From NCBI GenBank assembly GCA_002423555.1, contig DIWQ01000001.1, forward strand, positions 3,212-39,495: DNA of 36,284 bases, in the 5' to 3' direction. The position numbers and the translations under genes are program-made. Shown here piece after piece: positions 15,557-28,012 of the stretch; position 1 is the stretch's first letter, and each line of letters starts with the position of its first letter. The DNA comes from Patescibacteria group bacterium UBA6102. Lineage in GTDB: Bacteria; Patescibacteriota; Minisyncoccia; Minisyncoccales; UBA5738. The notes below the pieces were generated by a model. It was not told where the DNA came from. It saw only the letters and a program-made list of their open reading frames with translations, and did not search any database.

Positions 15557-15588
15557 ACATTCCAACATTCTTGAGAATGTTGGAATGT
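15557..15588. repeat. Copy 1 of a perfect 14-bp-stem hairpin repeat (ACATTCCAACATTC-TTGA-GAATGTTGGAATGT)
   Basis: A 37-nt stretch, including the trailing TTATT, is identical to 27904-27940. It sits directly after the arsR stop codon and before the thioredoxin-like gene. Confidence 0.85.
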
Positions 15589-15891
15589 TTATTTGATTAT
15601 TTTAAAAATATTTTCCGCTATTCTTTCCCCTTTTTTGGTCAGCGAATAATGAATCCAAACCCCGTCCTTGCGGCCCTCGATTAAACCCGCTTTTTTTAAT
15701 TTATTCAAGTGGTGTGACACCAGATTTTGCGGCAAGCCAAGATGCTTGATGATCCGGCAGGCGCAATGTTCGCCGCCTCGCAAAATGCAAAGTATTTTAA
15801 GCCGGTTTTCTTGGGCCAATAACTTCAAAATCGCCGCGGCCGGCGCGAATTCTTCCTTGCGGCGGTTATTTCTGCAACATTCCGGTTTCAT
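15589..15891 (-). CDS. ArsR/SmtB-family metalloregulatory transcription factor
   Basis: The 100-aa product has a winged-HTH signature (LAQENRLKILCILRGGEHCACRIIKHLGLPQNLVSHHLNKLKKAGLI). Confidence 0.85.
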   Translation of the reverse strand: MKPECCRNNRRKEEFAPAAAILKLLAQENRLKILCILRGGEHCACRIIKHLGLPQNLVSHHLNKLKKAGLIEGRKDGVWIHYSLTKKGERIAENIFKIIK

Positions 15892-16074: not shown

Positions 16075-16320
16075 TCAAAATTCGTATTTTTTGCCGTCGG
16101 CGGCAGTTATCCGGAAATTCCGGATAACTGAATTTTCATCCAATTCTTGCTCCAAAAATATATTTTTCAAATGTTCGTTGACTGTGCGCACATCAACATC
16201 AAAAAGCTCGGCAATCAATTTTTGCGAAAGCCAAACATTTTCATCCTCAATCCTGACATGGATTCTATTCCCGCCACCCAAAGATTGATATATGACAATT
16301 TGCGATTTTTGATTTTCCAT
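16075..16320 (-). pseudogene. N-terminal fragment of a RhuM-family (virulence/defence-island associated) protein
   Basis: The 81-aa ORF reads IVIYQSLGGGNRIHVRIEDENVWLSQKLIAELFDVDVRTVNEHLKNIFLEQELDENSVIRNFRITAADGKKY. This resembles the first ~80 residues of ~330-aa RhuM proteins and then stops. Confidence 0.6.
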
Positions 16321-16359
16321 AATCTCATTTTACCACAAAACCCATAATCCCATCCGACA

Positions 16360-16395
16360 ATTTAAATCCATATTTAAATCCGTATTTAAATCAGT
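16360..16395. repeat. Three tandem 12-nt units (ATTTAAATCCAT / ATTTAAATCCGT / ATTTAAATCAGT)
   Basis: This was read directly from the sequence. It lies 40-75 nt upstream (minus-strand sense) of the RhuM fragment start. Confidence 0.7.
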
Positions 16396-16635
16396 ACCGA
16401 ATCCATCATCAAATTTTCCCCAAATCTTAAGGGCTCTTCCACAAATAATATCCGCATCTTGCTTGCATCTTTACCCCATATTTCATTTTTCCTTGGTCGC
16501 AATATTTTCGTTGTAGCGAATGCTACACCTCAAATATTGTTCGGTCGGAAAAACGAAATCTGAGACAAATCTGACAACCAATCTGAGGACATTCTTTGTG
16601 GAAGAGCCCCAAGCGGTAACCATCCCCAAAATCCC

Positions 16636-16812
16636 TTACCCGCCTTTCCCGTTTTGCGTAACAAACAGAACACCCAACCGCTTCCCGTCTTTGATGAAAT
16701 CAGTAAATCTTTCCTTGACCTCAAACACATCCATATCCCGCGGGTTTTGAAAACCATAGTTAGCGGTAATTTTATCTCCAATTCTTATGGCTGTGGGTTG
16801 AAATACTCCCAT
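16636..16812 (-). CDS. Possible 58-aa ORF (below the track cutoff) overlapping the end of the 93-aa ORF
   Basis: It translates to MGVFQPTAIRIGDKITANYGFQNPRDMDVFEVKERFTDFIKDGKRLGVLFVTQNGKGG*. This looks more protein-like than the W/C-rich 83-aa track ORF at 16530-16781. The ending is faintly Phd/YefM-like. Confidence 0.25.
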   Translation of the reverse strand: MGVFQPTAIRIGDKITANYGFQNPRDMDVFEVKERFTDFIKDGKRLGVLFVTQNGKGG

Positions 16813-17066
16813 ATTGTTTCAATAATCATGCGGGCGGCTTCTTCGGCGGTGGTGTTTTCGGAACCGCAGGCAGTTCGCAATTTTTTGTTTTCGCGCAAAT
16901 CGCATAAATTGATAATCTCTCGCTTTAAATTTGCGTAAAGCCAATCCATCTTGTTTTTGGGCAATCCATGGATTAAATCAAATTCAAAATCCCCGGCCAA
17001 ATACAACTCCAGCGCCCCCTTGATTGTTGTCGGAAAAAGCTCTTCCTCCGCGTCTTTGTTGACCAT
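16785..17066 (-). CDS. Hypothetical protein (93 aa)
   Basis: The composition is clean and protein-like (MVNKDAEEELFPTTIKGALELYLAGDFEFDLIHGLPK...AEEAARMIIETIWEYF). I could not assign a family with confidence. Confidence 0.45.
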   Translation of the reverse strand: MVNKDAEEELFPTTIKGALELYLAGDFEFDLIHGLPKNKMDWLYANLKREIINLCDLRENKKLRTACGSENTTAEEAARMIIETIWEYFNPQP

Positions 17067-17237
17067 ATAGTTTTGCTATTTTGCAGAATTTAATTTTACT
17101 CTTCATTAATATTTTTAAACGACATAGTTTTTGGCTATCTGGGGTAATATTTTTTCCAGTCATCTTTTAAGATGTCCCGAAGCCTTTCCTCCACTATTTT
17201 TGTTGTTTCAATTTTTAATAACGTAATTTAAAAATTC

Positions 17238-18773
17238 TTAATTTTCACCCGAAATTGCTGGATGTATCTCTCTATAATCATCTGGAAAAAGTTCTTTTGC
17301 ATTATTATATTCCTCTCTAAAGTAGTTAAACATAAATGGTTGGAATGCCCACATCCTTTTTTCATCATTTGTTTTATTAGTCATAAATTTTTTTATTCCA
17401 ACCTTGTTTATGACTTGCATTGTTTTCTCAAAGTCATCGGTAGAACAAACGGAATACGGCATTGTTTTTAATAAATCTTTTTTGATGCCTATTTCGTCAA
17501 ACTTCGCGGCCACCATAGTATCTAATTCCTGGACAATAATTTTATCTCCGTAAAGATACCAATCCTCTAATGTAACTACTAATGGGAAATTTAGTTTTTT
17601 ATTGTTGGGAAAATTTAAATAGAAATTATTTAAATAATCTAATATTGATTTGTAAATTTGCACTATAAAATCAGCCATCAAATTTAAATCCTCGTTTAAA
17701 ATTTTGTTATCCTCTAATAAAATTTTAGCTTCGGCGCGAAGTTTTTTAGTTTTACACTCAATAAATAGATTGCAATCGCTATCCGTTAGTATCCAGTCGA
17801 CTGTTTGCTTCTTATTTTTACCTACAAAGTATTCGGTTTCGCATAAAATTTGATATCTGCTATCGGTAATTGATTTTACTAAAGCTTCACCTATATAATT
17901 TTGGTAGGATTTTCCAAATGGATTAGAAAATGCCGGCTCATTGCATATCTCATAGTAAATTCCATCAGTAAACCGCCTAAATAGAAAAGTTGGGATGGGG
18001 CAAACCAAGCTATCCTTTTTATTGTAATCAGTTCTGATTAGAGGGGTTGCTCTTAATTGATTAAAGGAGTAAGAAAAATCTTGATTATATAGCTGCGTTT
18101 CTTTAATTTTTTCTCTCACGGAGACCATATCAATACAAAAATGATCCAAGAATCTGTCAAATTTTAATTTATCAATTCCACCAATAAACAAGGTGGGGGG
18201 ATAATGTAAGACGAAATTATTTAAATATATACCAATAATCGCGAGCCCAAGTGTATAAAGTTCCTTTGTCGTTAGTCCGATATTTTTTTGAATAATCAGA
18301 TTTAACTCTGAATTACTAAATATTTTATAATACCGTGTGATCCAAATAAGATTCGGATTTGATTGCCACGGGAATTGCCTATGTGAAATTCGATACAATT
18401 CAAGTAAAATATTTTCCTTGAATAGATTGGCATATTTGATAGAAATAATATTTTCCAAGTCTTTAATCTCATTTACTGCCTTGGAAAAATAATGCCATTG
18501 CTTAATTGTTTTTCCCGATGACGAATTATTATAATCTGCATTTAATATTATTTCTTTAACTAAAATCTCAAGTTCCCATTCGTAAACTTTTTTATCGTAT
18601 CTAGAAACCGCCCTTAAAAAAGCTGGATCAACTTGAATGTCGTTTGGCAGTGCTTGGCCAAATTGAAGATATTGAAAATATGCGCGAGTTACAGCAAGCG
18701 AATCCATTAAAGGAAATTGTCTTAGATAATTCCTTAATGGCTTGTATGATTCATAAATAAGCGATTCCCTCAT
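17238..18773 (-). CDS. Orphan 511-aa protein with a PD-(D/E)xK nuclease-like motif; candidate stand-alone defence effector
   Basis: This is a long uninterrupted ORF in the most AT-rich stretch of the window. The motif block is GKSYQNYIGEALVKS...ETEYFVG...TVDWILTDSDCNLFIECKTKKL (E...D...E-x-K spacing). I recognised no other family signature. Confidence 0.7.
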   Translation of the reverse strand: MRESLIYESYKPLRNYLRQFPLMDSLAVTRAYFQYLQFGQALPNDIQVDPAFLRAVSRYDKKVYEWELEILVKEIILNADYNNSSSGKTIKQWHYFSKAVNEIKDLENIISIKYANLFKENILLELYRISHRQFPWQSNPNLIWITRYYKIFSNSELNLIIQKNIGLTTKELYTLGLAIIGIYLNNFVLHYPPTLFIGGIDKLKFDRFLDHFCIDMVSVREKIKETQLYNQDFSYSFNQLRATPLIRTDYNKKDSLVCPIPTFLFRRFTDGIYYEICNEPAFSNPFGKSYQNYIGEALVKSITDSRYQILCETEYFVGKNKKQTVDWILTDSDCNLFIECKTKKLRAEAKILLEDNKILNEDLNLMADFIVQIYKSILDYLNNFYLNFPNNKKLNFPLVVTLEDWYLYGDKIIVQELDTMVAAKFDEIGIKKDLLKTMPYSVCSTDDFEKTMQVINKVGIKKFMTNKTNDEKRMWAFQPFMFNYFREEYNNAKELFPDDYREIHPAISGEN

Positions 18774-18808
18774 AAATTTGTTATCGCATTTGATTTACCT
18801 GTTATCAT
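18770..18808 (-). CDS. 12-codon upstream micro-ORF translationally coupled to the 511-aa gene
   Basis: AGGAGA (18817-18822) is followed by 8 nt, then ATG ATA ACA GGT AAA TCA AAT GCG ATA ACA AAT TTA TGA. Its TGA overlaps the ATG of the 511-aa ORF (ATGA), and that ORF has no SD of its own. Confidence 0.3.
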   Translation of the reverse strand: MITGKSNAITNL

Positions 18809-18937
18809 AAAATTATTCTCCTAAAACTTCGCTTATACTAGTTGCGACTTTGAAATTTACTCCCAAGGACTTGAAATGGACATTGCCACAATCAATTTAT
18901 GGTTTTCGGTTTTGCGGCTTCCGCTGTGGTTGACGGT

Positions 18938-21772
18938 TTATGCGATGCTTAATAAGCTCGATATTGTGGAGTGGACGGTGATTTTTTCTGTGGGGATGAT
19001 TGCGTAGCGCCAGGGTTTTGTGATGCCGTATTTGCCGATGTTTTTGTTCACCGTTTCGCAGTATTTATCGGCGGTTTGTTTTTTTGCTTGCACCGATAGA
19101 TCATTAATTTCGCTCTCAGGTTTGACTTCGATCATTACGATTTCGTTTTTCAATTCGGCGACAAAATCCGGTTCATAGCGGTGGATGGAATCGCCCTGCT
19201 CGTCGCGCCAATACAAGCCGTCAAATTGGTTGGGCGCGGGCCGAAGCCAATCTTCAACCGCTTCGTCGCGATCCAGAAGATATGCCAACCTTGCTTCATC
19301 GGAAGAATCAAAACGATATTTGGAATGGCAGGCCTTGTTAAAATATCCGTAGAGCATTTTTGCCGAAAATGTATCCGCTTGCGAGTCAAGAGCAACTATT
19401 TTTTCTCCAAGTAATTCCGAAATGCCATAATCCTCCGAATATGGCTTCGATTCCCGCAGGTCCGATTCCAGATAACCTTCCGATTTCAATTCCTTATGAT
19501 CTAAAATTTGCTTGTATATGTCATCGGCGATACTTGCCGCATTGCTTTCAATAATCAAGGCCAGATTGTCTTCGTCAATTGCTTTTTTGCGGTAATGCGC
19601 CACGGTTTGTTCGGCCAATTTCAAAAGCAAAGGTTTCTGCGCCGAGTCTTCGTAATTTATGAGCGGCTCGCTCAAAAGAGCCGCAATGATGGTATTCCGC
19701 GGCGGTTGCCTGGCATAAGAGCCAAAACTGCTGATCCGCGTTATTTCGGGAATTCGCCGCCCCGGAACATCTTCGTTGAATAAGTTTTTTTCGCGGTTTG
19801 ATTGCAGCTGTTCTTCAAGAATCGCTCTTTCGTTGGTGTAGCCGCGCAAAACGCTTGTGTTCAAATCAAAATCAGCAATATGGATTTCGCCAAAATGCGG
19901 CGTCAATATCAAACGAGGAATGGGAATGTTTCTTTCTTCCAAAATTTTCGCGGATTGTTGCGAAATTTTGACAAGCTCCCCTCTCGTCGCGGCGCCAAAC
20001 AAGCCGAACAAAGTATCCGGCCCAAAACCGGTCTCAACCGGCGCGCCGCCGGTTTGCTGTTTGTGATAGCCGGAAAATGTAAGGTTTTTAATAGTTTCTT
20101 TTGCCAGATTACCAACCAGTTCCTCTTTCTTGGTTTCAACAAATTTAGCCCTTACAATTTCATCTATATTCATCATTTGCGGCGAATTGGAAACAAATTC
20201 TTCGGCTTTTTCAACGACCTCTTTCATCACAACTTCATTTTGCGTAATTTCGTTTTTTACATTATCAAGAATAACCGGCGAAACTTGCGTCAAAATTTTA
20301 ATTTCTTTGGTTTCTTTTTCGGAAATCTGTTCCACTTGGCCTTGGATAAGCGGCGAATCTTTGGCAAGCGCCACGACTTTGGCAAACTGTTCGTGAGCCA
20401 CGAGCACCAGCCGATCCACCAACGGCACCCCCGTGCGTTCCCCGTAGGGCAGGCGCAGTCCGCGGCCGATTGTCTGCTCGGTTAATATCGCGGCGGCGGC
20501 TTCGCGCAAAGGCGCGATTGTGTACACATTAGTAACATCCCACCCTTCCTTGAGCATATTCACGTGAATGACGATTTCCACCGGATTATCGGCGCGTTCA
20601 AGCGAAAGCAAAAGCTCAATGTTGTCGTCGGCCTCTTTTCCGCGCAGTTTTGTGTGTATTTCAATCACTTTGCCTTTAAATTCTCCACCACGAAAATCAT
20701 CGCTGTCAATCAATTTTCTAAGTGCTTCGGCGTGCTTTGTGTCTTTGGCCACCACAAGCAAAACCGGCTTTACGAGCGGTTTATTGTTTTCCGCGGCGTA
20801 TTCCTTCAAAGCGTTTTTTGCCCGTTCGTGAAAAAACGCCGCCAGCTGCAATTTTCGCGCATCAGTTTCGATTGAATCAGTGTCAAATTGGCCAAAATCA
20901 ACATCCGCCTCCGTTCCCACCCACGGATCTTTAACAAGCTTTCCTCGGATCGCGTCGCCAAGATTGTATGAATACAAAACATTCCGCATTTTGATCTGCC
21001 GCGCCTTTTTGCCCGTTCCCCGTGTACCAAGATATGGCGTGGCAGTCATTTCCAGACCGAACAACGGATCAAGAATATCCAACGCGCCAAGCGCCGCGTC
21101 GGCGTGGTAATGATGCGCTTCGTCAAGCATTACCACCAGATCGTCGTGCTCTTTAAGATAATCAAAATATGACTCCCCGGCGGTTTCCCACGCTTTGGTG
21201 ATACCGCGCTCGTTGTCCATATCTTTCTGGGCAAATTGCTGGATATTGAAAATGTTTATTTCAATTTGATTGCCGAACAAAGTATGACTGCGTTGATTGG
21301 CATAATTTTCAGTGGTGATAACTTTGGCAGTATTGATGCTTATCTCCTGAATGCCGCGAAAAACATATTTTGGATTACTGGCCTTGCTGAAATCGTCGTA
21401 AAGTTTGCGATAGATGGTTAAATTCGGCGCGACGATCAAAAAATGCTGGATATTGTAAACCAGATACATATAAGCGACAAAAGCGCCCATCAGCCTCGTT
21501 TTGCCCACGCCAGTCGCCAAAGCAAAGGTAAAGGCGGGAAACGCTCTTTCAAATTCTTCAAACTCGCGGGCTTCGGGCACGTCGGCAAAGTATGCCTTGC
21601 TGGTTGCCAAAATATCCGCAATATCGGCGCCAGTTTTCTTTTTCAAGCGCGTTAATAATTTTTGTCCGGCGGGCGCCTGCAAATAATCGGCAAAAAGCTG
21701 TAAACTTTTTACCTGCGGCACCCGCAAGCTCATCGCGCCGTTTATGTATTTGATCGCTTCTTCTGGTTTCAT
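18938..21772 (-). CDS. res: Type III restriction enzyme Res-like subunit (SF2 helicase plus C-terminal PD-(D/E)xK nuclease)
   Basis: The ORF has Walker A ALATGVGKTRLMG, DEAH box VVMLDEAHHY, motif III LEMTATP and motif VI EQTIGRGLRLP. The C-terminal block is YEPDFVAEL...IVMIEVKP. It lies 5 nt downstream of mod. Confidence 0.85.
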   Translation of the reverse strand: MKPEEAIKYINGAMSLRVPQVKSLQLFADYLQAPAGQKLLTRLKKKTGADIADILATSKAYFADVPEAREFEEFERAFPAFTFALATGVGKTRLMGAFVAYMYLVYNIQHFLIVAPNLTIYRKLYDDFSKASNPKYVFRGIQEISINTAKVITTENYANQRSHTLFGNQIEINIFNIQQFAQKDMDNERGITKAWETAGESYFDYLKEHDDLVVMLDEAHHYHADAALGALDILDPLFGLEMTATPYLGTRGTGKKARQIKMRNVLYSYNLGDAIRGKLVKDPWVGTEADVDFGQFDTDSIETDARKLQLAAFFHERAKNALKEYAAENNKPLVKPVLLVVAKDTKHAEALRKLIDSDDFRGGEFKGKVIEIHTKLRGKEADDNIELLLSLERADNPVEIVIHVNMLKEGWDVTNVYTIAPLREAAAAILTEQTIGRGLRLPYGERTGVPLVDRLVLVAHEQFAKVVALAKDSPLIQGQVEQISEKETKEIKILTQVSPVILDNVKNEITQNEVVMKEVVEKAEEFVSNSPQMMNIDEIVRAKFVETKKEELVGNLAKETIKNLTFSGYHKQQTGGAPVETGFGPDTLFGLFGAATRGELVKISQQSAKILEERNIPIPRLILTPHFGEIHIADFDLNTSVLRGYTNERAILEEQLQSNREKNLFNEDVPGRRIPEITRISSFGSYARQPPRNTIIAALLSEPLINYEDSAQKPLLLKLAEQTVAHYRKKAIDEDNLALIIESNAASIADDIYKQILDHKELKSEGYLESDLRESKPYSEDYGISELLGEKIVALDSQADTFSAKMLYGYFNKACHSKYRFDSSDEARLAYLLDRDEAVEDWLRPAPNQFDGLYWRDEQGDSIHRYEPDFVAELKNEIVMIEVKPESEINDLSVQAKKQTADKYCETVNKNIGKYGITKPWRYAIIPTEKITVHSTISSLLSIA

Positions 21773-21777
21773 AGTGT

Positions 21778-23397
21778 TTAGTCGTTATTCTCTTCCGCCG
21801 CTTCAATGTCAACTTCCTCCAAGGCGGTTTCTTTGATCGGTAGCAGATATTCTTTTTTGCCGAAATGACACGCCTTCAAAACCGATTGCGGGATTTTCTT
21901 GATCGTGATACGACTATCAATTTTGTCGGCTCCGGGTTCAAAATTTTTGGGACAAACGATCAGCGATTCGCCATCCAAAAGATGCGCCGCAATTTGCCGA
22001 ACCATTCCGCAAGTCAGAAGCTGGGTGGTAATGTAAAGATAATTTTTCCCCTGTCCCGCGCCGTGTTTCCAGTATTCGGTTTGGCTCGGCTGATATGTAA
22101 AATTCATAAGCTTGCACATCGCCTTTATAAGCTTGGTTTCATTATAAAAACTGTCAATCACCGGATTGCCAAACTCATCCTTTACAATAAAACTTGGTGC
22201 CAGCTCATAAAACTTATATGCCCCGCTGCCTTGCCAATTCACCGCCTTACTAATGCCTCCCTGATCGCTCCCATCAATCACCTTATCCAGCCGCACCTTG
22301 CAATGCGTATAAGCATGTTCCCCCATCTCAATCCCGATATACCTCCTCCCCATCTTATGCGCCACCGCCGCGGTAGTGCCAGAGCCAAGGAAAGAATCAA
22401 GAACAAAATCAGATTTATCTGATCCAAGTTGAATGATTCTTTGCATTAATTTTTCTGGTTTCGGAGTTCCAAAAATATCTTCTCCAAACAATACTTTAAT
22501 TTCTCTTTTCGCATCTTGATTATGCCCCACCTCTTGGTATGTCCATAGAGTCATAGCAACAATCCCATCTCTGACTTCCGATAAAAATCTTTTGATACGA
22601 GGAACTCCATCTCCATTTTGTCCAAAATAAATTCGATTATCTTTTTTGAATTCTTCAAATCTTTCCCTAGATAATCTCCACGAATAACCCGTTGGAGGAA
22701 AAACTTTTCGACCATTCGGCCCCGTTATTTCGTAAACATTTGACTCTACCGCGGGGCCTACAGAAAAATTATCTGATTGCCACAAACCACGCGGGTCATT
22801 ATCAAAATTTTGATATCTATCATTGGCTGCCTCGCTTCTTACCAATTTATTTAATGTAAAATTTAAGGTTTTGTTTTTTGCATAAACAAGGATTGCATCA
22901 TGCGACCTCGAAAGTGTTTTTTTGAGGTTTATTGGGGCATAGGATCGTTGCCAAATTACTTCATCAACAAAATTTCTTCTATCAAAAACTTCATCACATA
23001 ATACCTTTAAATAATGGCTTTCCTCCGCGTCAATTGAAATCCAAATACTGCCATTGTTTGGATCAAGAAGCATCCTTAACAATTCTAATCTTGGTTTCAT
23101 TAGTGAAAGCCAAGTGCTATGTTCCACACAATCGTCGTAATGATCAAAAGCACCACCTGTATTATAAGGAGGGTCAATGTAAATGCATTTTATCCTGCCT
23201 TCGTATTCGGGCAAAAGCGCTTTGAGTGCCAAAAGATTGTCGCCGTGGATGATCATATTTTCGGTGTTCGGATCGTTGGCGCAATTTGAAAGCTCCGGGT
23301 TTTCTTCCAAAATCCGCGGCTCAATATTGGCAATATCATATTCGGGATTATTCTTCCCGATCCAAGTAAGTTCTAATTTTTGTTTGTTATTATTCAT
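21778..23397 (-). CDS. mod: Beta-class N6-adenine/N4-cytosine DNA methyltransferase (Type III Mod-like)
   Basis: Motif IV (IYIDPPYNTG) precedes motif I (DSFLGSGTTAAVAHKMGRRYIGIE), which is the beta-class order. I place the start at the ATG at 23397 (MNNNKQKLELTWIGK), because the track start at 23412 is a TTG. Confidence 0.85.
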   Translation of the reverse strand: MNNNKQKLELTWIGKNNPEYDIANIEPRILEENPELSNCANDPNTENMIIHGDNLLALKALLPEYEGRIKCIYIDPPYNTGGAFDHYDDCVEHSTWLSLMKPRLELLRMLLDPNNGSIWISIDAEESHYLKVLCDEVFDRRNFVDEVIWQRSYAPINLKKTLSRSHDAILVYAKNKTLNFTLNKLVRSEAANDRYQNFDNDPRGLWQSDNFSVGPAVESNVYEITGPNGRKVFPPTGYSWRLSRERFEEFKKDNRIYFGQNGDGVPRIKRFLSEVRDGIVAMTLWTYQEVGHNQDAKREIKVLFGEDIFGTPKPEKLMQRIIQLGSDKSDFVLDSFLGSGTTAAVAHKMGRRYIGIEMGEHAYTHCKVRLDKVIDGSDQGGISKAVNWQGSGAYKFYELAPSFIVKDEFGNPVIDSFYNETKLIKAMCKLMNFTYQPSQTEYWKHGAGQGKNYLYITTQLLTCGMVRQIAAHLLDGESLIVCPKNFEPGADKIDSRITIKKIPQSVLKACHFGKKEYLLPIKETALEEVDIEAAEENND

Positions 23398-23402
23398 AAT
23401 AA

Positions 23403-23897
23403 TTAAGACCAATTGAAAGTTTTTAGCCTATTCCTTGGTATCGTTCTGGATAATTCTGATCCTCTACACTTAATGTGCAAGCTGGTACTTGGCTCCCAAG
23501 ACACGGAAATATTCGCAGGTGTTCTTTCTAGGGTTAGCCTCAAATCATCTATATCTTCCCATTCTAAAGTGCAAATCTCTTTATCGGAACATACGAGGCA
23601 AATTAATAAATTCCGGCTAATATCTATAGATCTTAGTTTATCAATGTCCATTTCGTTAAAAGTAAAATTGCACACACTTTCCCCTTTCCTACGATTTGTT
23701 ATTTGCGAAGTCCATTTTATATAAATCCTATGTGTTGTAGCATTGTCCGTTACCTCATAAGCACCCCAACCATAAGAATCGTTTCTTTCTATTAGTTTCA
23801 AATTTATCAAGGGATTTCTAATAATTTGAGAAAGTACGGCCCCATGATAAAGCTCAAATTGTGCTGTAGTTGGCATATATTCTATATTACTTTCCAC
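23403..23897 (-). CDS. Orphan protein (157-164 aa) wedged between the SNF2 helicase and the methyltransferase
   Basis: The ORF fills the whole gap between the two genes. Its start is either the GTG at 23897, which overlaps SNF2 by 16 nt, or the ATG at 23876, which lies 5 nt after the SNF2 stop. I recognised no motif. It is AT-rich. Confidence 0.6.
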   Translation of the reverse strand: MESNIEYMPTTAQFELYHGAVLSQIIRNPLINLKLIERNDSYGWGAYEVTDNATTHRIYIKWTSQITNRRKGESVCNFTFNEMDIDKLRSIDISRNLLICLVCSDKEICTLEWEDIDDLRLTLERTPANISVSWEPSTSLHIKCRGSELSRTIPRNRLKTFNWS

Positions 23898-26842
23898 CGC
23901 ACGGTGAACAATGGTGTGAGAGTGGTTTTTTGGTTTAATTGGGTTTCAACTTTTTCCAATAAATTTTCTTTTTTGACGTCAACATCATCCTGCGACCGAT
24001 AAAGTTTTTGGCGCATTTCGTTCCGCTTTTTTTCTAAATCCTTGATCTCGCGCTGAAGCTTAACTTTTTCTCCCAAGTTAAGCACCTTCTTCGCGTTCGT
24101 TTTCATCGCTTTTATATCAATATCCATTTGTCTTAGCTCAATTTCCAAACTTTTTTTCACATCTTCGGCCCATTTATCAAGCTTATCCACTTCATTGTCA
24201 AAAAATTCGCCGTTACGACCGGCAACACTCGCCACGATGATTGTGGCTTTTTCTTGTTCCCTTTGCCACAATATCTCGTTTTTTATTTCGGATATATTTT
24301 TATTTATTTTGGCATTGAGCGTGAACAGTTTTTCGGCGATATCTTCATCAATCGCCTCGCCGCTGTCTTTGATTGCGGTTATTAAAATATTGTCCTCGGT
24401 TTCAAACGAATCAATCGTAAATTCTGATACTTGCAGAATGCCGGACGCGCCCACCAATTCTTTTATTGATGAAATAATTTGTCCGTGATTGGAATAATCA
24501 AAAATTAGTTCCGCGCCGGGCAATTTCAATGCTTTGATTTCTTGCAAAATCAGCACCGCCAACGGATGGCCTGGGCGGTAAATGTGAGCGTCGTCAATAT
24601 TCTTACCGATTTTATATGGCCCTTCCTCAACTTTTTCTTCCGGAAAAGGATTTTGTTTGAGAGTGAAGGAATATTCATCATCGGCATAAACCGCTTTATC
24701 GCCCAAAAAATGCCGCGAAATGTCCCAGAGCCATTTTTCGTATGTTTCCAAATATGATTTGCTTTCCCGCAAATTCACTTTTAGTTTTTCGCAGACATCG
24801 GTGTCAAAGTTCTCCAAAAGTTTTTCTTTGGCTCCCTGCATTCCTTCTTCAATTGATCCGCCCATTTCCACTTGCAAGGCGTCAAAGGCGCGGTCAATTT
24901 CTTCATCGGTGCGGCAAGTTTGATAAATTGCGGCAATTCTTTTTTCAAAATCAACTCCGGAGGCAATGTTTCCCAGCACTTCATCGCTTGCCCCAAACAC
25001 CCCTTTAAAAAGCTGGAATTTTTGATCAAGCAAGTCATATACACGCTTATCGGCGGCGTTTTTGCGGTTCACAAAATTTACCACAACCACATCGTGTTTT
25101 TGACCGTAGCGATGGCAGCGGCCGATTCGCTGCTCAATTCTTTGCGGATTCCACGGTAGATCGTAATTGATGACCAGCGAACAGAATTGCAAATTGATGC
25201 CCTCGGCGGCCGCTTCGGTGGCAATCATAATTTCCGCGTCAGTTTTAAAATAATCCACCAGCGCGGCACGAAGATCCGCGGTTTTTGAACCGGTTATTTT
25301 GTCGCTATTTTTGTTTTTTTGCAACCAGTCGGCATAAATTTCTTTTGATTTCTGATCGTTGTTGGAGCCATTGAATAATACTATTTTATCTTTATAACCG
25401 CTTTCCGTGAGCAATTTCCAAAGGTAATCTTGGGTAATTCTTGATTCCGTAAAAATAATCGCCTTTCTGGGTATATCCTGATCGCCTCGTTCCTTTACCA
25501 ATTCTTCCTGCTTGCTAAACCCTTTTTCCAAAGCGGTGAGCAACGATTCTCCTTTTGAATTTTTAAAAATCGACTTGGCAAGTTCTCGGAATTTCTCCAA
25601 GTAATTTTTTTCGGCTTGGATAAAAGGCAGATCATCAATCGTGTATTTTTTCTTTTCCTTTGATTTTTCCTCGTCGTCTTCCTCCTCATTATCAATCCAT
25701 TCATCCGCCGTATCCGCGAACGCCTCGTAATTTTCTTCAAGCCCGGGCGGAAGTTCGCCGTTTTCGGCAATAGATTCATTGGCTATTTCCGTTTCCAATT
25801 TCTCAATCTTGTAAACAAGGCCGTTTAGCGTGCTGGCAATGGCAAACGAAGACGATGCAAGAAGTTTGCGCAATATCAGCGTCATAAGCTGGCGCTGGCT
25901 GGAAGGCAAGGCGTATAATTTAGGGCGTTGCAAATACTCCGACATTCCATTGTAAAGCTCAATTTCTTGATCGGTGGGAGTATAATCCTGCGTTAACGGA
26001 ATTCTTCTGGTATATTTGATATATTCCAAAACCTGGCGCCGCAAAGTCCGGATACAGATCGGCTTTAATCGGTTCCTCAAATCTTCAAACATTTCCCGTT
26101 TCGGCTCAATCGCGCCATCTTCACGGTCGCAAATATCCTGCTCTCGGGAAACCCGCGCGTAGTTTGCCTTAAAACTCTTTAAATCGCCAAAAACATGGTC
26201 ATCAACAATACTGACTAATCCAAAAAGCTCCAATAGCGAATTTTGCAATGGTGTTGCGGTCAAAAGAATTTTGGGAATGCCGTCCAGTGATTCCTTGATT
26301 TGTTTGGCGATTTTGTTGCTTGATTTATAAACATTGCGCAGCCGGTGGGCTTCATCAATAACCGCTAAATCCCATTTTGTTTGTTTTATATACGGAGATT
26401 TTGCCCTCGCGAAATGATATGAACAAATAATAATGGAGTCTTCTTGATTGAAAGGATTAAGATTTCCCTCTTTGACAAATTGATTGAATGATTTTGCTTC
26501 GATAATAGTTGAGGGGAGAAAAAATTTTTCTTGAAGTTCAGAATTCCATTGCTTCCTTAAGCTGGATGGCACAATGAGCAATATTTTTCTTTTTCTTTCT
26601 GCCCACTTTTGCGACAAGACAAGGCCTGCCTCAATCGTTTTTCCCAGACCGACTTCATCCGCCAGAATCGCGCCCCTGGAAAGCGGCGAACGAAAAGCAA
26701 AAAGCGCCGCTTCGATTTGATGTGGATTTAGATCAACCTGCGCATTTGACAATGTTGATGATAGTTTTTCTAAGCTATCCGACGAACATCGCTTCGCAAG
26801 CTGATACGCAAAATATTTAGCGTGATAATCGGTAATGCTCAT
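23882..26842 (-). CDS. SNF2-family (SF2) helicase/translocase with a ~330-aa C-terminal extension ending in a coiled-coil-like region
   Basis: Motif I is ILADEVGLGKTIEAG, motif II is AVIDEAHRLRN, motif III is LLTATPLQNSLLELF and motif VI is QRIGRCHRYGQKHDVVVVNF. The C-terminus is Lys/Glu-rich and heptad-like (LEIELRQMDIDIKAMKTNAKKVLNLGEKVKLQREIKDLEKKRNEMRQKL). Confidence 0.9.
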   Translation of the reverse strand: MSITDYHAKYFAYQLAKRCSSDSLEKLSSTLSNAQVDLNPHQIEAALFAFRSPLSRGAILADEVGLGKTIEAGLVLSQKWAERKRKILLIVPSSLRKQWNSELQEKFFLPSTIIEAKSFNQFVKEGNLNPFNQEDSIIICSYHFARAKSPYIKQTKWDLAVIDEAHRLRNVYKSSNKIAKQIKESLDGIPKILLTATPLQNSLLELFGLVSIVDDHVFGDLKSFKANYARVSREQDICDREDGAIEPKREMFEDLRNRLKPICIRTLRRQVLEYIKYTRRIPLTQDYTPTDQEIELYNGMSEYLQRPKLYALPSSQRQLMTLILRKLLASSSFAIASTLNGLVYKIEKLETEIANESIAENGELPPGLEENYEAFADTADEWIDNEEEDDEEKSKEKKKYTIDDLPFIQAEKNYLEKFRELAKSIFKNSKGESLLTALEKGFSKQEELVKERGDQDIPRKAIIFTESRITQDYLWKLLTESGYKDKIVLFNGSNNDQKSKEIYADWLQKNKNSDKITGSKTADLRAALVDYFKTDAEIMIATEAAAEGINLQFCSLVINYDLPWNPQRIEQRIGRCHRYGQKHDVVVVNFVNRKNAADKRVYDLLDQKFQLFKGVFGASDEVLGNIASGVDFEKRIAAIYQTCRTDEEIDRAFDALQVEMGGSIEEGMQGAKEKLLENFDTDVCEKLKVNLRESKSYLETYEKWLWDISRHFLGDKAVYADDEYSFTLKQNPFPEEKVEEGPYKIGKNIDDAHIYRPGHPLAVLILQEIKALKLPGAELIFDYSNHGQIISSIKELVGASGILQVSEFTIDSFETEDNILITAIKDSGEAIDEDIAEKLFTLNAKINKNISEIKNEILWQREQEKATIIVASVAGRNGEFFDNEVDKLDKWAEDVKKSLEIELRQMDIDIKAMKTNAKKVLNLGEKVKLQREIKDLEKKRNEMRQKLYRSQDDVDVKKENLLEKVETQLNQKTTLTPLFTVRWKVI

Positions 26843-27097
26843 TTTGTTGATTATTCAAGCACTATCCCATTCAATTTAACTCTGTTGACAAAATAATGCG
26901 TGCTGATACGATTTAATTGGAATCGCTTTCAGACCGAATTGTGGCGTTTATCGCCGCGTTCCCGCAAGGGATAGGTTTGGAAGTTTTTTGTTATTGGGAT
27001 ACAGGCAGACAAAAATAAAAATATGAGCATATCCGCGCTCCAAGCTCCGTCCACTATAAACTATCACAATTTGGACCAAAAATCCATTTGAAAACAC

Positions 27098-27903: not shown

Positions 27904-27935
27904 CCGGATATGGACATTCCAACATTCTTGAGAAT
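27904..27935. repeat. Copy 2 of the 14-bp-stem hairpin repeat
   Basis: The sequence is identical to 15557-15588, and the identity extends through the trailing TTATT. It lies between the dnaX terminator and tRNA-Gln. Confidence 0.85.
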
Positions 27936-28012
27936 GTTGGAATGTTTATTAACGACAGATAGTTTATTTTAATGTTCCGCAGAATATCAAAATGCTTTTT
28001 GGGGTGCAAACC

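Follow-up and report, generated by a model that had tools for sequence, protein, structure and literature searches.

What does the long, AT-rich open reading frame (ORF) on the minus strand of a patescibacterial contig encode, and does its product act by itself or together with the restriction genes beside it? The 36,284-nt stretch of DNA that was analysed, referred to here as the window, comes from Patescibacteria group bacterium UBA6102 (contig DIWQ01000001.1, positions 3,212 to 39,495), and an initial annotation made from its letters had proposed this ORF as an orphan, single-gene defence nuclease whose translation is gated through an upstream leader micro-ORF. Our analysis indicates that the 511-aa product probably belongs to the GapS1 (GAPS1) superfamily as a stand-alone defence protein that unites sensor and effector, within a divergent clade found mainly in Patescibacteria, Alpha- and Betaproteobacteria and Nitrospirota. 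The structure model predicts two fused domains, the N-terminal one all-alpha and ~280 aa long and the C-terminal one a PD-(D/E)xK nuclease, with the following elements:

17238..18773, minus strand: GapS1-like gene, 511 aa plus stop, start at ATG 18773 (ORF list and translation, NF047931 match, hhalign)
17934..18773, minus strand: all-alpha N-terminal domain, residues 1-280, presumed sensor or regulatory module (AlphaFold2)
18729..18746, minus strand: YKPLRN motif, residues 10-15, nearly invariant and clade-specific (alignment of 45 homologues)
18363..18392, minus strand: R128-x2-H131-R-Q-F134-P-W136-Q137 motif, invariant columns, aligned with the invariant QQxxYQ of GapS1 (hhalign)
17394..17933, minus strand: predicted PD-(D/E)xK (restriction-endonuclease-fold) nuclease domain, residues 281-460 (AlphaFold2, Foldseek)
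17838..17840, minus strand: E312, invariant acidic residue of the putative catalytic site, aligned with invariant GapS1 E300
17796..17798, minus strand: D326, invariant putative catalytic Asp, aligned with E. coli GapS1 D315 and equivalent to GAPS1 D313
17751..17759, minus strand: E339-C340-K341, (D/E)xK motif, aligned with E. coli GapS1 D328/K330, K341 being the equivalent of GAPS1 K328
17241..17393, minus strand: C-terminal helical tail, residues 461-511, with invariant W475 and F496 (AlphaFold2, alignment)

An AlphaFold2 model of the full-length protein, built with the family alignment, reached a predicted local distance difference test score (pLDDT) of 89.8 and a predicted template modelling score (pTM) of 0.88. 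From residue 283 onwards the model runs through a helix (283-301), four strands (308-341), a helix (357-381), a strand (394-401), a helix (410-428) and a strand (441-444), an order that indicates PD-(D/E)xK topology. D326 lies just ahead of strand 327-330, with E339 and K341 on strand 334-341, and the modelled protein thereby carries E/D/(D/E)xK on the expected elements of the alpha-beta-beta-beta-alpha-beta core that marks this superfamily. All four residues (E312, D326, E339 and K341) are invariant in the 45-sequence family alignment. The initial annotation had read an E...D...ExK nuclease layout from peptide motifs that we found again in the translated ORF, and had suggested a predicted structure and Foldseek as the check on it. 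Both bear the reading out, as the invariant residues fall within a confidently modelled restriction-endonuclease fold, and the top Foldseek matches in the PDB are exclusively PD-(D/E)xK proteins, namely Upx, VC1899, Can2, FokI, N.BspD6I, R2 endonuclease, Cdn1, LmuA and Shedu. The best of these was Upx (9wuf; E 1.9e-4, probability 1.0, 554 columns, TMq 0.29). The family profile had no match at E<=1 among all PDB sequences, and Foldseek returned nothing below 1e-3 among the BFVD viral models. The tail of ~150 aa that had been set apart as a separate domain belongs largely to the nuclease fold, of which it forms the second half (beta4 394-401 and beta5 441-444), and ends in a short helical stretch.

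The relationship to GapS1 extends beyond this nuclease core. The NCBIfam profile NF047931 (antiphage_GapS1) matched the window protein with an E-value of 6.2e-22 and 78.1 bits, spanning residues 86-460 against profile positions 54-429 of 455, and it matched 45 out of 45 aligned family members (best E 4.1e-32). When the 45-sequence family profile was compared by hhalign with 24 sequences named 'GapS1 family protein', the two aligned over 341 columns (residues 131-488 against 118-485) at 96.4% probability and an E-value of 1.3e-9. By these alignments, homology to GapS1 spans residues ~131 to ~488, or ~70% of the length, and significant similarity outside the nuclease core is seen with both methods (86-460 and 131-488). 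The hhalign residue pairs between the clade and E. coli GapS1 are E312/E300, D326/D315, E339/D328 and K341/K330, and the N-domain motif HRQFPWQ...TR is paired with YQQGIYQ...SR of GapS1, invariant on both sides. BLASTP of the window protein against WP_032260687.1 likewise aligned residues 281-358 with 273-347 (E 6e-4), with VDWILTDSDCNLFIECK opposite VDFLLPHDEANIFIDAK. This E. coli gapS1 product, whose homologues carry the name 'GapS1 family protein' in E. coli, Klebsiella and Salmonella, was tied to the tested EJP5250929.1 construct by a 100% match over the first 380 nt, the span to which the comparison was confined. Among complete E. coli genomes the EJP5250929.1 fragment found its match, and the WP_152927281.1 DNA fragment from the GAPS1 paper's supplement found none.

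GAPS1 itself is a single protein from a GMT island of Vibrio parahaemolyticus that shields E. coli from many coliphages, and either D313A or K328A in its C-terminal PD-(D/E)xK domain abolishes defence (Mahata et al., bioRxiv 10.1101/2023.03.28.534373). The T7 capsid protein Gp10 acts as its trigger, and the outcome is dormancy, not death; four E. coli GAPS1 homologues also defend, and deleting the native E. coli gene sensitises the host (bioRxiv 10.1101/2023.03.28.534373). The peptide around the two essential residues, rebuilt from the mutagenesis primers, reads GKVV-D313-FLHQRNGTSIFIDA-K328-GVEP, and it has in common with TV-D326-WILTDSDCNLFIEC-K341 of the window protein both the 15-residue spacing from D to K and the hydrophobic pattern. 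Alignment and spacing thus agree on D326 and K341 as the equivalents of GAPS1 D313 and K328.

NF047931 also shows how far the clade has diverged: with a curated cut-off of 320 bits, the profile gives 327-427 bits to bona fide GapS1 and 63-78 bits to the clade (78.1 for the window protein, 63-73 for its other members), which places the protein as a homologue in a distinct, divergent clade, outside GapS1 as NCBI curates it. The initial annotation had itself tied the novelty of the gene to the lack of a match to any catalogued system, and that novelty falls away, as the protein is a distant homologue of the catalogued GapS1/GAPS1 family. What is new is the divergent clade; GapS1-type single-protein PD-(D/E)xK defence nucleases are already known, and no new mechanism is shown here.

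Residues 1 to ~280 of the full-length model are almost wholly helical, and a model of residues 1-244 alone was predicted equally well (pLDDT 89.6). Foldseek with this shorter model gave nothing significant in the PDB, the best E-value being 0.26 and the highest TM-score 0.40 (to Upx, at E 7.7), so that the presumed sensor-side domain is structurally unclassified. A modified-DNA reader domain, which would mark a Type IV restriction endonuclease, was found neither by Pfam nor by Foldseek. Roughly the first 130 aa are specific to the clade. The N-terminal region, ~290 aa in the initial annotation and there matched to nothing recognisable, has no solved homologue and is presumed to be sensory or regulatory; from residue ~131 onwards it aligns with GapS1.

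By analogy with GAPS1 and Upx, the N-domain would hold the nuclease in check, and its binding or remodelling by a phage protein produced in the course of infection would release the nuclease to cut nucleic acid, leading to growth arrest or aborted infection. The trigger of Vibrio GAPS1 is the major capsid protein, and that of the window protein may differ because its first ~130 residues do; this clade-specific part probably sets trigger specificity.

The gene had been called an orphan, which the searches contradict. A word-indexed search returned 374 homologues at E<=1e-3, mostly full-length proteins of 500-515 aa with 40-62% identity and all labelled 'hypothetical', and the family profile searched against 1.84 billion cluster representatives yielded 3060 matches at E<=1e-3, 1827 at E<=1e-10 and 713 at E<=1e-30. 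In GTDB, at one genome per species, 109 loci encode a relative, and the best 80 of these 109 are distributed as follows:

Patescibacteria: 20 of the best 80 loci
Alphaproteobacteria: 25 of the best 80 loci
Beta- and Gammaproteobacteria: 19 of the best 80 loci
Nitrospirota and Nitrospinota: 6 of the best 80 loci
Bacteroidota: 5 of the best 80 loci
Others (Akkermansia, Methylomirabilota, Anaerolineaceae, an unclassified bacterium and a Woesearchaeota archaeon of the DPANN group): 5 of the best 80 loci

Such patchy spread across phyla is typical of horizontally moving genes. Relatives were also found by tblastn on 24 plasmids, including those of Pseudomonas, Cupriavidus and Sphingobium. The same plasmid searches, run with the window protein and with a Nostoc intermediate, retrieved only 'hypothetical' or 'nuclease-related domain' proteins and none named GapS1, and tblastn against phages gave a single weak, unannotated match. 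Very distant relatives on Streptomyces and Kitasatospora plasmids, reached via the Nostoc plasmid intermediate, are annotated as 'nuclease-related domain-containing protein', which suggests that the GapS1-like superfamily grades into NERD-like nucleases in Actinomycetota. The E. coli gapS1 gene (Ecol_AZ147, NZ_CP018995.1) lies 8 nt downstream of a P2-like prophage integrase, with genes for CI, CII, Fil and a replication endonuclease nearby; this is an integrase-proximal cargo position of the prophage, and the protein matches phrog_14259.

In the window the gene stands out by its composition. Its GC content of 0.31 and its GC content at third codon positions of 0.285 are the lowest among the 24 long ORFs, against a window mean of 0.443, as the initial annotation had rightly seen. 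The AT-rich patch (GC 0.27-0.35, ~16950-18900) comprises the gene and its immediate flanks, and the neighbouring res gene has a GC content of 0.46. The gap to res is likewise as first described, running from the res stop at 18938 to the gene start at 18773:

18774..18937, minus strand: spacer of 164 nt between the Type III res stop and the start of the GapS1-like gene

A scan of this spacer for sigma-70 promoters and terminators revealed no minus-strand site; the scan as a whole did not rise above shuffled sequence and used the sigma-70 consensus, from which promoters of the Candidate Phyla Radiation (CPR) may differ. The gene is horizontally acquired and moves as a single-gene cassette, here as an AT-rich insertion beside a cluster of a DrmD-like SNF2 gene and Type III restriction-modification (R-M) genes.

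Nine annotated contexts of the gene and its homologues are all different. Apart from the Type III R-M genes of the window, they comprise a serine recombinase with a block of small ORFs without Pfam matches; AbiJ/Abi_C, HipA and RadC; a locus (L011) in which the homologue lies 13 nt after a 628-aa DNA methylase and a 463-aa gene, and in which genes for an integrase and a Cas4-like protein are in the vicinity; an Mrr nuclease at a distance of 0.7 kb; an integrase; an integrative conjugative element (ICE) with CBASS 8 kb away; a position between an insertion sequence transposase and a reverse transcriptase; and one locus (L016) that is taken up below. Pfam families were counted more broadly among the two ORFs on each side of 37 non-redundant loci (148 proteins), as occurrences per family and not per protein. 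The commonest families among these near neighbours were Recombinase (4), D12 methyltransferase (3), N6_N4 methyltransferase (3), Resolvase (3), C5 methyltransferase (2), Eco57I (2), Peptidase_S24/LexA (2), DUF772 transposase (2), Phage_integrase (2), ResIII (2) and AbiJ (1). Farther out at these loci, among 126 proteins of distal ORFs (at a median of 6.7 kb), Phage_integrase ranked first with 5, followed by sigma-54 activators, PAS/response-regulator proteins, hydrolases and similar housekeeping families. The islands that carry the homologues are thus small, mobile and rich in R-M genes, and an integrase often lies within a few kb. Each Pfam family is confined to at most 4 of the 37 loci, which together with the nine differing contexts argues that there is no conserved operon partner and no obligate partner gene. 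The core of the initial annotation, a stand-alone single-gene PD-(D/E)xK effector in a defence neighbourhood, is upheld.

Two other roles could be imagined for such a nuclease. The gene might encode a restriction-type endonuclease (Type II/IV-like or accessory) forming one system with its Type III mod/res and SNF2 neighbours, a role suggested by its location downstream of res on the same strand, the two genes being separated by 164 nt in which no terminator-like site was found. The GC contrast between the two genes (0.31 against 0.46) points to separate acquisition, however. Likewise, although DNA methylases are the commonest functional class among the near neighbours of homologues, and L011 places a homologue directly behind a methylase and a second gene, most homologues have no adjacent methylase and no partner family recurs in more than 4 of the 37 loci. 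The consistent linkage to a cognate methylase that would mark a Type II restriction endonuclease was not found, each methylase family accounting for at most 3-5 of the 148 near neighbours, and PADLOC gave no REase or mREase match on the window protein. Since the homology moreover leads to GapS1, a stand-alone family whose members defend as single genes, we consider partnership with the R-M genes very unlikely.

Alternatively, the protein might be a nuclease of mobile elements whose main role is not phage defence but competition between elements, addiction or the processing of island DNA. Serine recombinases, integrases and transposases are often adjacent to homologues, one of which lies within an ICE, but no recombinase type is consistently linked, and defence genes ride on such elements as well. 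Similarly, E. coli gapS1 directly follows a P2-like prophage integrase, yet P2 integrase-proximal sites are known defence hotspots. Phage protection has been shown for the tested GapS1 homologues, and an E. coli host deprived of its native gene becomes more sensitive; a main role outside defence thus appears unlikely.

Several observations weigh against assigning the protein to the GapS1 superfamily as a defence protein. At 78.1 bits it falls short of the curated NF047931 cut-off, clade members are just ~15-24% identical to bona fide GapS1, and the first ~130 residues bear no detectable similarity to GapS1, the hhalign alignment starting at residue 131. Pfam, PADLOC-DB 2.0.0 (2023) and PHROGs gave no match on the window protein, PADLOC being a check that the initial annotation had itself put forward. 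The trigger, the substrate and the outcome (dormancy or death) proposed above are extrapolated from one studied Vibrio protein. Counting neighbours per family in the Pfam and PADLOC scans makes their enrichment semi-quantitative, and L016, 1 of the 9 annotated contexts, has no defence or mobile-element gene nearby. With these points taken into account, we still regard a single-protein sensor-effector of the GapS1 superfamily as the likely identity of the gene product.

The start of the gene could be placed with the help of the same homologues. All 45 aligned homologues begin 4-12 residues ahead of YKPLRN, as does the ORF of the window, and because this motif (residues 10-15) is nearly invariant among them, the gene truly starts at ATG 18773. 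In the public JGI gene model, by contrast, the protein begins at M23 (18707 instead of 18773) and is 489 aa long, dropping 22 residues that include YKPLRN. A reading of the upstream micro-ORF as the mis-framed true N-terminus was rejected, since homologues start at the same distance from YKPLRN as the main ORF does. The window corresponds to a JGI metagenome contig (3300001567, Draft_10001328), and an identical gene (100% identity) occurs on four metagenome contigs, with three metagenomes represented besides the window's own.

The initial annotation had further proposed that translation of the nuclease is coupled to a 12-codon leader micro-ORF with a strong Shine-Dalgarno (SD) sequence, based on these elements:

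18770..18808, minus strand: 12-codon micro-ORF MITGKSNAITNL plus stop, the TGA overlapping the main ATG as ATGA; most likely fortuitous
18817..18822, minus strand: AGGAGA, SD-like hexamer 8 nt upstream of the micro-ORF ATG, at chance level

On the minus strand, positions 18822-18770 read AGGAGA-ataatttt-ATG ATA ACA GGT AAA TCA AAT GCG ATA ACA AAT TTA TGA, so that all three elements (micro-ORF, SD spacing of 8 nt and ATGA overlap) are present. The same sequence is found on the four metagenome contigs, though all of these carry the gene at 100% identity. That the gene lacks an SD of its own is correct but carries no information, because an SD core (GGAG/GAGG/AGGA at -20..-4) is present in 0 of 19 gene calls of the genome and its absence is therefore the rule. 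AGGAG-N5-10-ATG occurs five times on both strands of the window, against 6.8 +/- 2.6 in shuffled sequence, and all five copies precede short non-genic ORFs and never a real gene. Among the closest relatives with upstream sequence, L008 and L017 (58% identity), L018 and L020 have no such micro-ORF; only L019 (~51% identity) has an ATG-started 11-codon ORF ending in ATGA, for which the presence of an SD, or its being the tail of a longer gene, was not checked. An ATGA start is found in 15 of 43 non-redundant upstream regions, which is about what a purine-rich +4 position gives. At 11 loci an upstream ORF ends at this ATGA, with 2-45 codons and with unrelated lengths, start codons and sequences, and at none of these 11 did the interval -25..-4 before the main start contain an SD-like core, a scan that did not extend to the region before the micro-ORF starts. 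Neither the conservation among homologues nor the excess over chance by which a coupled leader peptide would be recognised was thus observed. In a genome without SD use, with the motif at chance level and a micro-ORF whose length, start codon and sequence are not conserved across 43 homologous loci, gating through the leader is highly improbable. We leave the micro-ORF outside the proposed mechanism, the chance that it is functional being very small.

Across the 43 non-redundant homologues an SD-like 4-mer lies within 25 nt upstream in 8, and at a plausible distance in 5, and this holds in Proteobacteria too, which normally use SD sequences. Weak translation initiation may be a family trait of a potentially toxic nuclease.

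Around the GapS1-like gene, the window contains two further blocks of genes:

18938-26842, minus strand: four-gene cluster of SNF2 helicase, 164-aa gene, Type III Mod and Type III Res
16075-17066, minus strand: three small ORFs of 93, 75 and 81 aa, between the GapS1-like gene and the ArsR cluster

The upstream cluster lies on the same strand and consists, counting away from the GapS1-like gene, of Type III res (944 aa), Type III mod, the 164-aa gene (phrog_28860, E 3e-7) and a DrmD-like SNF2 helicase (986 aa). The helicase matches PADLOC DrmD at E 1e-208 and NCBIfam DISARM_DrmD_b at 700 bits, under the 950-bit cut-off, and the Res protein has a C-terminal BPTD_3080/TnsA-like nuclease region. 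The cluster looks like Type III R-M plus a DISARM-like helicase, without DrmA/B/C, and it is AT-shifted as well (GC 0.36-0.46 against 0.47-0.53 for core genes). Downstream, the three small ORFs, for which no Pfam or PHROG match was found and which were not seen beside homologues elsewhere, are followed by a cluster of ArsR, thioredoxin-like and ArsP permease genes. The prolyl-tRNA synthetase of the window has its best named relatives, at 60-64% identity, in Patescibacteria (Buchananbacteria, Moranbacteria and CPR2), which marks the host as a CPR bacterium.

A match to Rfam RF02968 ('DUF3800-IX RNA') at 26925-26988 on the plus strand (54 bits, gathering score 36.8) lies divergently just upstream of the SNF2 helicase start at 26842. 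In addition, a perfect 37-nt direct repeat, of which none is expected by chance, is present at 15557-15593, between the stop of an ArsR-family gene and the thioredoxin-like gene, and at 27914-27950, between dnaX and tRNA-Gln. It forms a palindrome with 14-bp arms (ACATTCCAACATTC-TTGA-GAATGTTGGAATGT-TTATT) and, among 97 fetched loci, occurs only in contigs of the source genome. The two copies bracket 12.36 kb with the ArsR gene, the three small ORFs, the GapS1-like gene, res/mod, the 164-aa gene, the SNF2 helicase, the DUF3800-IX RNA and tRNA-Gln, and no integrase lies inside this segment. The repeats could be island boundaries, an ArsR operator, or a terminator or repetitive extragenic palindrome (REP)-like element. 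A repeat search around the AT-rich cassette itself for insertion scars gave nothing convincing.

With this clade, the GapS1 superfamily reaches beyond Enterobacterales and Vibrio to ~700 further representatives (50% identity, E<=1e-30) that span Patescibacteria, Alpha- and Betaproteobacteria, Nitrospirota, Bacteroidota and one DPANN archaeon. It marks an annotation gap, being below the cut-off in NCBIfam and missed by PADLOC 2.0.0, Pfam and PHROGs, and it enlarges the small known CPR immune repertoire by a candidate defence gene; to our knowledge, almost no defence system of Patescibacteria or DPANN has been tested. As its N-terminal 130 residues diverge while the middle and the nuclease are conserved, the clade also offers a comparison set for finding the part of GapS1 that reads the trigger. 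A further-reaching interpretation, which we hold to be unlikely, is that of a separate GapS1-like lineage whose private N-module (YKPLRN...E74, ~130 aa) senses a non-capsid trigger. Ultra-small episymbionts (the Patescibacteria together with at least one DPANN archaeon) would then have in this single gene a principal abortive or dormancy defence. In a bolder variant, the invariant polar cluster R128/H131/Q133/W136/Q137 would form a second site, either ligand-binding or catalytic, comparable to that of the dual-nuclease Upx.

Compared with known systems, the window protein has the catalytic fold and E-D-ExK chemistry in common with Can2/Card1, VC1899, the FokI cleavage domain, N.BspD6I, Shedu and LmuA. 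The sensor or DNA-recognition domains of these generic PD-(D/E)xK nucleases differ (CARF, TALE-like and others), and the matches to them (E 2e-3 to 0.5) come without homology outside the nuclease core. Upx, an anti-phage nuclease acting as a single protein, has 1272 aa and three domains, with a second, atypical nuclease N-terminal and a C-terminal domain (715-1272) whose catalytic core lies within the last ~150 residues (D1161/E1176/K1178; PMC13099982). It is reportedly activated by, or senses, phage proteins. Like Upx, the window protein has a long, mostly non-catalytic region ahead of a C-terminal PD-(D/E)xK core, but with 511 aa and one nuclease domain it lacks the three-domain, two-nuclease build, and the likeness is one of fold level (global TM-score 0.29, identity 11%) without a sequence-level match.

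The closest comparison is with GAPS1/GapS1 (Vibrio parahaemolyticus WP_005477165.1; E. coli WP_032260687.1). The clade has ExK where GapS1 has DxK, its first ~130 residues including YKPLRN are not alignable, and it ranges over Patescibacteria, Alphaproteobacteria, Nitrospirota and DPANN, whereas GapS1 is found mainly in Enterobacterales and Vibrio. GAPS1 defence was shown in phage assays, and the clade is known here from sequence and predicted structure alone. Both are nevertheless single proteins of ~500 aa, encoded without a partner gene on mobile or defence islands, in which a non-catalytic N-terminal region with a QQxx[YW]Q...[ST]R motif precedes a C-terminal PD-(D/E)xK domain, and their E / D / (D/E)xK residues stand in register, with the D and the K being those essential in GAPS1.

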